Part shown: positions 15,674-18,587 of the stretch, in pieces
Layout: every line of letters begins with the position of its first letter
Numbering within the stretch: position 1 is the stretch's first letter
IMG/VR virus record: IMGVR_UViG_2737471852_000004
From: a virus
Taxonomy: Duplodnaviria; Heunggongvirae; Uroviricota; Caudoviricetes
Strand: one strand, 5' to 3'
Length of the DNA stretch: 40,436 nucleotides
Program-made: the position numbers and the translations under genes
Notes under the pieces: generated by a model
Seen by the model: only the letters and a program-made list of their open reading frames with translations
Databases searched by the model: none
Told to the model about the DNA's origin: nothing

Positions 15674-16316
15674 TGGCAGCAAATACCGAAATATTTGGGT
15701 AGTTGGCGATCTGCACGGATGCTACACGAACCTGATGAAAAAACTGGAGACGATAGGATTCGACACCAAAAAAGACCTGCTTATCTCGGTTGGCGATTTG
15801 GTCGATCGCGGTACAGAGAATGTCGAATGCCTGGAATTAATCACATTCCCCTGGTTCAGAGCTGTACGTGGAAACCATGAGCAAATGATGATTGATGGCT
15901 TATCAGAGCGTGGAAACGTCAATCACTGGCTGCTTAATGGCGGTGGCTGGTTCTTTAATCTCGATTACGACAAAGAAATTCTGGCTAAAGCTCTTGCCCA
16001 TAAAGCAGATGAACTTCCGTTAATCATCGAACTGGTGAGCAAAGATAAAAAATATGTTATCTGCCACGCCGATTATCCTTGTGACGAATACGAGTTTGGA
16101 AAGCCAGTTGATCATCAGCAGGTAATCTGGAACCGCGAACGAATCAGCAACTCACAAGACGGGATCGTGAAAGAAATCAAAGGCGCGGACACGTTCATCT
16201 TTGGTCATACGCCAGCAGTGAAACCACTCAAATTTGCCAACCAGATGTATATCGATACTGGGGCAGTGTTCTGCGGAAATCTCACATTGATTCAGGTACA
16301 GGGAGAAGGCGCATGA
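15651..16316 (+). CDS. Ser/Thr protein phosphatase (lambda PPase / NinI type)
   Basis: 221 aa from [24 protein letters not shown]...; metallophosphatase motifs GDLHG, GDLVDRG, GNHE. Confidence 0.9.
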
Positions 16317-16936
16317 GACTCGAAAGCGTGGCTAAATTTCATTCGCCAAAAAGCCCGATGATGAGTGACTCACCACGGGCCACGGCTTCTGACTCTCTTT
16401 CCGGTACTGATGTGATGGCTGCTATGGGGATGGCGCAATCACAAGCCGGATTCGGAATGGCTGCATTCTGTGGTAAGCACGAACTCAGCCAGAACGACAA
16501 ACAAAAGGCTATCAACTATCTGATGCAATTTGCACACAAGGTATCGGGGAAATACCGTGGCGTTGCAAAGCTTGAAGGAAATACTAAGGCAAAGGTACTG
16601 CAAGTGCTCGCAACATTCGCTTATGCTGATTATTGCCGTAGTGCCGCGACGCCGGGCGCAAGATGCAGAGATTGCCACGGTACAGGTCGGGCGGTTGATA
16701 TTGCCAAAACAGAGCAGTGGGGGAGAGTTGTTGAGAAAGAATGCGGAAGATGCAAAGGTGTCGGCTATTCAAGAATGCCAGCAAGCGCCGCATATCGCGC
16801 TGTGACGATGCTAATCCCAAACCTTACCCAACCCACCTGGTCACGCACTGTTAAGCCGCTGTATGACGCTCTGGTGGTGCAATGCCACAAGGAAGAGTCA
16901 ATCGCAGACAACATTTTGAACGCGGTCACACGTTAG
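16313..16936 (+). CDS. Q: Late-gene antiterminator Q (lambda type)
   Basis: 207 aa [34 protein letters not shown]...; essentially lambda Q as recalled. Confidence 0.9.
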
Positions 16937-16978
16937 CAGCATGATTGCCACGGATGGCAACATATTAACGGCATAATA

Positions 16979-17007
16979 TTGACTTTTTGAATAAAGTTGG
17001 GTAAATT
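16979..17007 (+). promoter_or_regulatory. Late promoter PR' (-35 TTGACT, 17-bp spacer, -10 TAAATT) with presumed qut site
   Basis: Hexamers read directly 43 nt after the Q stop; arrangement as in lambda PR'. Confidence 0.55.
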
Positions 17008-17042
17008 TGACTCAACGATGGATAAATGCACTCGTTAAATAA

Positions 17043-17072
17043 AGCCCTGAGTTAATAGCTCGGGGCTTTTTG
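17043..17072 (+). terminator. Intrinsic terminator about 35 nt downstream of PR' (9-bp stem with one G-U pair, loop TTAATA, U5)
   Basis: AGCCCTGAG-TTAATA-CTCGGGGCT-TTTTT read on plus strand. Confidence 0.55.
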
Positions 17073-17215
17073 CGTTTTAATCACGACCTTTCTGAAAGCA
17101 CATCAAACCAAATACCAGACAGACAAAAATAATCACCTTATCCGCTGTGGCTACGGTGCGGTGTGTTTTGCATAAAAGAAAACCAGCGCAATGGCTGGCT
17201 TCGTGAAAGCGGGTG

Positions 17216-17250
17216 GCAAGAGGTTGCGCTAACAACCTCCTGCCGTTTTT
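17216..17250 (+). terminator. Second intrinsic terminator upstream of S (10-bp stem with one mismatch, loop GCGCTAACA, U5)
   Basis: GCAAGAGGTT-GCGCTAACA-AACCTCCTGC-CGTTTTT read on plus strand. Confidence 0.55.
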
Positions 17251-17369
17251 CCCGTGCATATCGGTCACGAACAAATCTGATTACTAAACACAGTAGCCTG
17301 GATTTGTTCTATCAGTAACCGACCATATTCCTAATTAAATAGAGCAAATCCCCTTATTGGGGGGAAGAC

Positions 17370-17693
17370 ATGAAGATGCCAGAAAAACATGACCTGTTGG
17401 CCGCCATTCTCGCGGCAAAGGAACAAGGCATCGGGGCAATCCTTGCGTTTGCAATGGCGTACCTTCGCGGCAGATATAATGGCGGTGCGTTTACAAAAAC
17501 AGTAATCGACGCAACGATGTGCGCCATTATCGCCTGGTTCATTCGTGACCTTCTCGACTTCGCCGGACTAAGTAGCAATCTCGCTTATATAACGAGCGTG
17601 TTCATCGGCTACATCGGTACTGACTCGATTGGTTCGCTTATCAAACGCTTCGCTGCTAAAAAAGCCGGAGTAGAAGATGGTGGAAATCAATAA
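17370..17693 (+). CDS. S: Holin S (lambda class I holin, dual-start motif MKMPEK)
   Basis: 107 aa; essentially lambda S as recalled. Confidence 0.95.
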
Positions 17694-18153
17694 TCAACGT
17701 AAGGCGTTCCTCGATATGCTGGCGTGGTCGGAGGGAACTGATAACGAACGTCAAAAAACCAGAAATCATGGTTATGACGTCATTGTAGGCGGAGAGCTAT
17801 TCACTGATTACTCCGATCACCCTCGCAAACTTGTCACGCTAAACCCAAAACTCAAATCAACAGCCGCCGGGCGTTACCAGCTTCTTTCCCGTTGGTGGGA
17901 TGCCTATCGTAAGCAGCTTGGCCTGAAAGACTTCTCTCCGAAAAGCCAGGACGCTGTGGCACTGCAACAGATTAAAGAACGTGGCGCTTTACCGATGATT
18001 GATCGCGGTGATATTCGTCAGGCAATTGACCGTTGCAGCAATATCTGGGCTTCACTTCCGGGCGCTGGTTATGGTCAGTTCGAGCATAAGGCTGACAGCC
18101 TGATTGCAAAATTCAAAGAAGCGGGCGGAACGGTCAGAGAGATTGAGGTATGA
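17677..18153 (+). CDS. R: Endolysin R (lambda-type lytic transglycosylase)
   Basis: 158 aa [23 protein letters not shown]...; essentially lambda R as recalled. Confidence 0.95.
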
Positions 18154-18587
18154 GCAGAGTCACCGCGATTATTTCCGCTCTGGTTATCTGCATCATCGTC
18201 TGCCTGTTATGGGCTGTTAATCATTACCGTGATAACGCCATCGCCTACAAAGAGCAGCGCGACAAAGCCGCATCCATCATCGCTGACATGCAGAAGCGTC
18301 AACGTGACGTAGCAGAACTCGATGCCAGATATACAAAGGAGCTTGCTGATGCTAACGCGACTATCGAAAGTCTCCGTGCTGATGTTTCTGCTGGTCGTAA
18401 GCGCCTGCAAGTCGCCGCCACCTGTGCAAAGTCAACGACCGGAGCCAGCAGCATGGGCGATGGAGAAAGCCCAAGACTTACAGCAGATGCTGAACTCAAT
18501 TATTACCGTCTCCGAAGTGGAATCGACAGGATAACCGCGCAGGTTAACTACCTGCAGGAATACATCAGGACGCAATGCCTGAAATAA
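18150..18587 (+). CDS. Rz: Rz i-spanin
   Basis: 145 aa; N-terminal TM segment then coiled-coil periplasmic domain; N-terminal 40 aa match lambda Rz. Confidence 0.85.
18349..18534 (+). CDS. Rz1: Rz1 o-spanin lipoprotein, embedded in the +1 frame of Rz
   Basis: AAGGAG RBS 7 nt before ATG 18349; lipobox LLVVSAC, Pro-rich mature region. Confidence 0.7.

Follow-up and report, generated by a model that had tools for sequence, protein, structure and literature searches.

Among the described late control regions, those of phages lambda and P22 stand closest to the locus examined here. In lambda, a -10-like element at +1 to +6 of the late transcript causes a sigma70-dependent pause at about 16 nucleotides (nt) (PMC4604602), and lambda Q and the gene 23 protein (gp23) of P22 substitute for one another (PMC8022706). 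The P22 record BK000583 places the 5' nucleotide of the late RNA 7 nt past the -10 and labels the hairpin that follows "t late or tR'; antiterminated by gene 23 protein action", and the paper on the RNA StxS (PMC7547250) cites short RNAs under antitermination control that arise at the late promoters of P22, 21, 82 and phi80. In this study, we performed a computational analysis on the 433-nt gap between the Q and S genes (positions 16937 to 17369) of IMG/VR virus record IMGVR_UViG_2737471852_000004, a stretch of 40,436 nt, hereafter the window, which looks like a complete genome of a lambdoid phage akin to HK97, HK022 and HK544. Our analyses suggested that this gap is very probably the control region of the late operon of a lambdoid phage, in its P22/HK97/HK022 form. 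The arrangement is that of the already annotated P22/HK97-type late control region and nothing in it is new in kind; its early terminator and the spacer that finds no match in lambda make up the standard late leader of such phages, and represent neither a new element nor an oddity of assembly or recombination.

An earlier note on this DNA, made from its letters alone, had recognized a lambda-type Q gene upstream of the gap and a PR'-like promoter within it, and both assignments are confirmed (Table 1). A Q-family gene lies directly upstream, and 27 of the 29 bases of the late promoter PR', with its Q-binding element (qut), are identical to lambda PR'; the equivalent stretch is annotated as PR'/qut in HK140, mEp213, P22 and epsilon34. 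A generic promoter scan of the window returned two matches where 3.1 were expected and was not above chance, so that PR' is assigned on its identity to lambda and not on the scan. The stretch thus presents a sigma70 promoter with a Q-binding element between -35 and -10, followed by the pause element AACGAT at +1 to +6. The start site was placed at 17014 because both the position of this element in lambda (PMC4604602) and the RNA start of P22 point to it.

The same note had marked a terminator about 35 nt downstream of PR' (17043-17072), and an intrinsic terminator was indeed found between the promoter and the first late gene, its hairpin being followed by TTTTT, GCG and TTTT. The terminator scan counted 13 pairs in this hairpin and reported nine terminator-like sites in the window, against 2.9 +/- 1.5 expected. 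The hairpin aligns column for column with positions 37917-37945 of P22 (about +31 to +59), which places it in the P22 type of tR', and the equivalent hairpin is annotated as a terminator in the records of Emek and ES18 as well. Across 37 distinct sequences, 97.2% of the cells of the stem were paired, whereas controls with slid partners reached 14-69%; an AU<->CG compensatory pair occurred in 7 of the 37, and a U.G wobble in 33 of them argues that selection acts on the plus-strand RNA. Because the homologous P22 hairpin carries this annotation, the first terminator is, on grounds of homology, the working tR' of a P22/HK97-type leader, and a short RNA is its expected product. As the earlier note anticipated, a PR' transcript ending there would be very short, 58-65 nt by our prediction; the first 62 nt from +1 fold into two hairpins with a minimum free energy of -23.3 kcal/mol (z = -4.5).

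From these parts, the following order of events can be proposed. PR' would fire constitutively, and RNA polymerase would pause near +16, where sigma70 re-binds the -10-like AACGAT at +1 to +6. Without Q, transcription would stop at tR' (hairpin from +28, T tract from +54 to +65) and release the 58-65 nt two-hairpin RNA, which would be the counterpart of the 194-nt 6S RNA of lambda minus the 6S body. Once made, Q would bind qut in the promoter spacer, load onto the paused polymerase and turn it terminator-resistant, and tR', the spacer and the leader helices would then be read through into S-R-Rz and about 20 kb of late genes. Support for Q-dependent read-through of tR', and for the short RNA predicted in the absence of Q, comes from homology with P22 and lambda. 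R and Rz lie downstream of S, and to the right of S all open reading frames (ORFs) of at least 110 amino acids (aa) with a plausible gene layout are on the plus strand.

Table 1. Features of the Q-to-S region and its flanking genes (window positions; loci used for comparison carry L numbers)
Feature	Position	Strand	Details
Q antiterminator gene, lambda type	16313..16936	+	206/207 aa identical to lambda Q; Pfam PF03589, E = 1.3e-57
PR' late promoter	16979..17007	+	-35 TTGACT 16979-16984; -10 TAAATT 17002-17007; Q-binding element within the spacer
Inferred +1 (17014) and -10-like sigma70 pause element AACGAT (+1 to +6)	17014..17019	+	Identical to lambda
Short PR' leader RNA, predicted constitutive	17014..17078	+	58-65 nt (predicted): 5' stem-loop 17014-17036, AAAUAAA linker, terminator hairpin
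tR', predicted intrinsic terminator	17041..17078	+	Hairpin 17041-17069, G-C stem 17044-17066; T tract 17067-17071, GCG, TTTT 17075-17078
Nearly invariant 28-nt block	17072..17099	+	GCGTTTTAAKCACGRCNTTTCTGAAAGC; directly after tR'; invariant in BLAST-derived relatives including P22, ES18, ST104
C-rich, G-poor, unstructured spacer (rut-like), core unmatched in lambda	17077..17158	+	Base composition, fold z
Cargo slot, insertion point of genes in relatives	17159..17173	.	Loci L103, L092, L096, L052
Hairpin A, reverse-oriented terminator-like element	17174..17202	-	A run 17174-17182 (minus-strand U run); stem CCAGC 17183-17187 / GCTGG 17194-17198
Long conserved leader helix	17200..17271	+	H1 17200-17206/17265-17271; H2 17209-17214/17250-17255; H3 17215-17226/17233-17244; T run 17246-17250
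Three invariant motif copies	17269..17351	+	GAACAAATC 17269-17277; complement GGATTTGTTC 17300-17309; GAGCAAATCC 17342-17351, overlapping the sdi stem
sdi-type stem-loop	17350..17364	+	CCCC TTATT GGGGGG; just upstream of the S dual start; lambda-identical except for one base
S holin/antiholin gene	17370..17693	+	Dual start ATG AAG ATG; opens the late operon; HK140 and other records annotate it as a lambda S homologue

The segment between the two supposed terminators (17073-17215) had been described as unlike lambda and as unique. The first description stands: identity with lambda runs to 17036 and restarts at 17199, the roughly 410 nt of lambda in between (the body of 6S RNA, its tR' and more) and the roughly 162 nt of the window are unalignable, and the colinear lambda alignment which had been named as the refuting test fails. 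The second does not. Matches to the whole 433-nt region were obtained in 194 phage records and covered 80% or more of its length in 77 of these, and a 176-nt query around the unmatched part matched 101 phage records, at 92-99% identity in HK97, HK022, HK140 and the mEp phages, 77% in P22 and about 76% in epsilon34 and ES18-like phages. At least these 101 records, at least 120 IMG/VR contigs among the matches listed and 334 of 5426 complete E. coli genomes (approximately 6%) therefore hold the segment. A relaxed pattern of the 28-nt block, scanned over genome contigs, gave one E. coli match and 13 chance matches in unrelated phyla, and no wider host range.

The rival explanation that survives best, possible but doubtful in our judgement, is that two intrinsic terminators in tandem, at 17041-17078 and 17215-17250, doubly lock the lysis genes. 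In 1983, Luk and Szybalski reportedly described tandem terminators in the late leader of lambda. The second element, referred to as hairpin B, is the 12-base-pair apex H3 of the long leader helix, followed by G TTTTT in the window (17245-17250) and by GTTTTG in lambda and most E. coli-type relatives; the earlier note had read it as a second terminator (17216-17250) just before S. The hairpin and its T run are present in the window and in lambda, but the hairpin ends about 120 nt upstream of S, inside the part shared with lambda (17199 to S is colinear with it, including hairpin B, the long helix and the sdi stem-loop), and the terminator scan did not flag it. In P22-type sequences TGATCTGCCC stands in place of the U run found in the window, lambda and E. 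coli-type sequences, and the helix is kept, so that termination is not the conserved function of this helix. Furthermore, the sequence downstream of the U run folds back into H2 and H1, which covary, and this pairing would compete with termination, two loci (L081 and L055) drop the 3' half of the helix, and other relatives have hairpin B split by an inserted gene. The TTTT(T/G) run may add some termination in the window and in lambda.

The lookalike of a second terminator is part of a longer, covarying helix in the leader of the late mRNA, irregular and roughly 25 base pairs long, which is present in lambda too. In H1, TTCGTGA pairs with TCACGAA, and in H2, GCGGGT pairs with (T/G)CCCGT; the 80-nt stretch folds as H1-H2-H3 at -32.1 kcal/mol (z = -3.5). 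Paired cells amounted to 94-95% (61 and 24 distinct sequences) versus 31-44% with slid partners, and seven pairs were changed on both sides, for example CG<->UA in H2 and UA<->CG in the apex. RNAalifold recovered H1 and H2 independently; its consensus (alignment A3) omits hairpin B owing to a common A.C mismatch, and pairs were then counted explicitly. The role of the helix is probably in RNA processing or stability. Several variants touch it. Position 17250 is T in the window where lambda and nearly all relatives have G (GTTTTT versus GTTTTG), a state shared with L074 only; the T run behind hairpin B becomes longer, and H2 loses one U.G pair. The loop of hairpin B (window equivalent 17227-17232) occurs in flipped forms, CGCTAA or TTAGCG and TTGACG or CGTCAA (L107:2819-2978; L065:4351-4510 versus L051:6105-6264), and at L120:7820-7901 the whole tR' hairpin is present as its reverse complement; such flipped hairpins look like template-switch inversions at quasi-palindromes. 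The deletion in L081 and L055 removes about 80 nt of the S leader (equivalent to about 17254-17330), so that the long helix loses its 3' half and only the last of the three motif copies is left; these leader parts are therefore dispensable for at least some prophages.

Next in order comes a role for the 58-65 nt PR' RNA itself as a trans-acting regulatory small RNA in lysogens, comparable to StxS, which we regard as unlikely. The predicted RNA combines a stable two-hairpin fold, an AU-rich single-stranded linker and a terminator tail; it is near-invariant over more than 100 loci and is encoded in approximately 6% of E. coli genomes, and the authors who described StxS propose antiterminated late promoters as a source of small RNAs (PMC7547250). 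However, the constraints of qut and the pause account for the invariance of +1 to +23, and termination accounts for that of the hairpin; the RNA has no Rfam match, and its loop and linker are short. A role of this kind would in any case be compatible with late-operon control. Our literature search found no transcriptome paper covering the P22/HK97-type leader.

About as improbable is the view that neither the segment nor the early terminator has a function of its own and that both are a neutral scar of recombination, left by module exchange or cargo loss; the earlier note had suggested a scar for the one or the other. The match to lambda is lost 4 nt upstream of the hairpin and regained immediately past hairpin A, the junction of ES18/ST104-type phages lies inside the 5' arm of the tR' hairpin, direct repeats flank the spacer (lambda has one copy), cargo genes may be present or absent, and hairpins occur flipped. 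Yet a late promoter of this kind needs a terminator before S, tR' is the only strong one, and its compensatory pairing is kept. Moreover, the E. coli and Salmonella spacers are only about 77% identical and still agree in length (125-135 nt in 122 loci), in the excess of C over G and in their flanking hairpins, which indicates constraint and not decay. The hairpin is also reused. Our comparison set comprised 133 block-bearing sequences, namely 132 fetched loci and the window, and the 3' half of the hairpin with everything downstream is common to phages that differ in the upstream half, the leader and Q: upstream of the block, 100 sequences have a lambda-type leader, 19 an ES18/ST104-type leader with a longer PF03589 Q, five a third leader, and five follow a phrog_753 "Q-like" protein without a Pfam match. 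The scar interpretation thus gives way before a hairpin annotated as tR' in P22 and Emek, paired in 97% of cells with a compensatory pair, and found behind at least two unrelated Q families. Rather than a scar, the terminator is a functional part at which recombination also joins sequences. Together with the spacer it forms a portable module, a behaviour that identifies the terminator as a joint of the mosaic, and the region is a hot spot of mosaic exchange.

The spacer itself begins with the 28-nt block, which resembles a single lambda copy, GCCTTTTACACATGACCTTCGTGAAAGC, located just before the shared leader (78.6% identity over 28 nt). Partial direct repeats bracket the spacer (17061-17073/17159-17171 and 17088-17099/17199-17210), and the lambda stretch (L003:1199-1227) is a single merged copy of these flanking repeats; the P22/HK97 arrangement could have arisen by duplication, or that of lambda by deletion between repeats. 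An inverted copy of the spacer in lambda was considered and set aside as well, the only exact match being 10 nt long (GTGGCTACGG, E = 0.08 in a 676-nt database) and taken as chance. Downstream, the C/G ratio reaches 3.2-3.6 at 17077-17146, within the top 1.2% of the window. Two sequence types of spacer exist, E. coli and Salmonella, about 77% identical over the 176-nt query, and C makes up 27-36% and G 12-15% in every type. The fold was no better than that of shuffled sequences on either strand (z about -0.4). Scans of both strands in the window, in P22 and in the divergent contig L015 detected no promoter-like site in or beside the spacer, and Rfam returned chance-level matches only (E <= 10 on 16000-18500; gathering score over the whole window). 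A presumably leaky terminator is followed by 70 nt or more of RNA that is rich in C, poor in G, free of structure and not translated, as would be expected of a Rho loading site; we infer a Rho-loading (rut-like) back-up that may stop polymerases leaking past tR' without Q.

Two ORFs overlap this segment. The minus-strand frame of 65 codons (17077..17274) has a hydrophobic C-terminus and is intact in 27 of 52 E. coli-type variants, but is reduced to at most 11 codons in 26 of 27 Salmonella-type variants; a hydrophobic small protein of 19-65 aa on this strand was rejected, since the frame is not conserved. The plus-strand frame of 51 codons (17163..17318) matches phrog_22751, stops after 24 codons in P22 by hand translation and overlaps helices that covary as RNA, and it was rejected as a gene because it is truncated in P22-type phages and overlaps these helices. 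Neither product has a Pfam match, and neither frame is kept open in homologues, in keeping with the earlier statement that no ORF lies between the terminators. Annotation pipelines call ORFs here (PGAP WP_029798719.1; "hypothetical protein" in HK140, ECP1 and Sf101; phrog_22751; also L134:2548-2730 on the minus strand). The 60-aa minus-strand and 51-aa plus-strand (phrog_22751) ORFs called by such pipelines are very likely spurious. That the unmatched segment (17078-17200) encodes its own small RNA, as the earlier note had also ventured, or a small protein on either strand is hardly credible and already largely refuted: annotators do call both frames, one with a phrog match, and terminator-like hairpins flank the segment on the minus strand, but neither frame holds across variants, and with no promoter, no fold beyond that of shuffles, no Rfam match and no conserved ORF an independent gene or small RNA is unlikely. 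The approximately 160 nt unlike lambda are an exchangeable module of the 28-nt joint, the C-rich stretch, a cargo slot and hairpin A, not a gene.

In Stx phages, the toxin genes occupy the 5' position of the late operon, and the earlier note rightly drew attention to this position. Phages L and Sf6 carry tRNA genes at the position of the slot (PMC8022706). Among the loci compared, six to eight have genes inserted at the equivalent of about 17159-17173, including a 65-aa ORF (phrog_3909) in L103, a Phage_gp49_66 gene (PF13876) in L092, a NUMOD4/HNH-like gene in L096 and a 520-aa minus-strand ORF in L052. In 122 of the 133 sequences, 125-135 nt separate the block from the conserved element that follows, and the slot is empty in these as in the window. 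The NUMOD4/HNH-like, homing-endonuclease-type gene (MLSE.AKDIAGYEGKY...; PF07463, E = 1.5e-12) occurs in several Salmonella phage contigs, and its insertion lies right after hairpin A or inside hairpin B (window equivalent 17207-17222) in L012, L021, L030, L072, L079 and L096.

Hairpin A, which the earlier note overlooked and which is missing from lambda, lies on the right-hand side of the cargo slot and is made up of AAAAGAAAA and a short G+C hairpin. The scan flagged it as a minus-strand terminator in the window (17202..17179 and the T run), P22 and L015, and it folds at -12.1 kcal/mol (z = -2.6). Its stem occurs as CCAGC/GCTGG, CCCAG/CTGGG, CCCGC/GCGGG and CCCAGC/GCTGGG, variants that are compensatory by eye. 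The asymmetry of G.U versus A.C, inspected in three variants, favoured the minus strand in two and the plus strand in one. A single weak consensus match to a minus-strand promoter lies further right (18220-18192). Hairpin A may shield PR' and Q from spurious antisense transcripts, or it may belong to the plus-strand leader. The sdi hairpin read on the minus strand, followed by ATTTGTTC, is also terminator-like in the scans of P22 and L015 (L004 1235..1220; L015 2375..2359), and in the window (17366..17349) it was flagged with the tail TTTGCTCTAT. Together, hairpin A, reversed tR' and reversed sdi give three leftward terminator-like sites within 330 nt.

Several points weigh against late-operon control as a full account of the region. 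First, the sequences form two main clades, so that some "compensatory" changes are possibly single events, and the shuffle control leaves the relatedness of the sequences uncorrected. Second, the ends of the PR' RNA, the efficiency of tR' and read-through are all predictions for the window phage and its relatives, and the rut-like role is proposed from composition and lack of structure alone. Third, the account leaves the near-invariance of the 28-nt block after tR' without explanation and offers no leftward transcript for hairpin A to stop; no leftward gene for it to serve was found, and in the window, P22 and L015 alike the stretch from 17203 to the start of S showed no promoter-like site on the minus strand. 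Finally, the long helix is a candidate for the RNase III sites of the lambda late leader, a lead taken from helix geometry. Processing by RNase III in that leader was reportedly described by Daniels et al. in 1988 (cited in PMC7547250); the link is only a lead, for which the helix now provides a concrete structure to hold against the old report.

The leader of S contains the three motif copies listed in Table 1, two direct and one complementary, that are invariant even in very divergent leaders (L015, L092). The complementary copy has two possible partners, the upstream copy, which shares bases with the long helix, and the downstream copy, which shares bases with sdi, and the two pairings are mutually exclusive. 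Both alternative helices are pairable in 92-99% of cells; as the copies never vary, they give no covariation signal, and covariation cannot choose between them. The three copies may act as an RNA switch or as protein sites, and a switch might couple events upstream, such as folding or processing, to whether S is started as holin or as antiholin. The downstream stem-loop is of the sdi type known from lambda S, where sdi has a role in the S107/S105 start choice. To the combined proposition that the 58-65 nt RNA acts in trans in lysogens like StxS and that the S leader separately holds an unrecognised RNA switch, we give little weight.

Compared with known systems, the region most resembles that of P22 (P late/PR', qut, "t late or tR'", gene 23 to gene 13; BK000583), with the same order of parts, a near-identical promoter, qut, pause and terminator position, a G-C stem at +31 to about +59, a homologous spacer (77%), hairpin A, the long helix and a dual-start holin; it differs in a spacer core of the E. 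coli (HK97/HK022) type, the T run after hairpin B and a lambda-type holin leader. With lambda it shares a Q that is 99.5% identical, PR', the Q-binding and +1 to +6 pause elements, and the colinear stretch from 17199 to S. In lambda, however, tR' lies at about +194 (6S RNA), the approximately 410 nt from +24 are unrelated, hairpin A is lacking and one block-like copy is present; the predicted leader RNA is not a 6S RNA, a 194-nt transcript with the 6S body, as only the first 23 nt are shared. Like StxS (PMC7547250), the predicted RNA would be a constitutive short PR' RNA ended at tR' in lysogens, at the position of the Stx cargo, whereas StxS is a 74-nt RNA processed by RNase E from a longer transcript and belongs to another Q/qut type, the window RNA being a predicted primary transcript of 58-65 nt. 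Finally, lambdoid late operons have a moron or cargo slot near their start, filled by tRNA genes in L and Sf6 and by stx in Stx phages; at the 5' end of the operon examined here it is likewise filled in relatives and is empty in the window.

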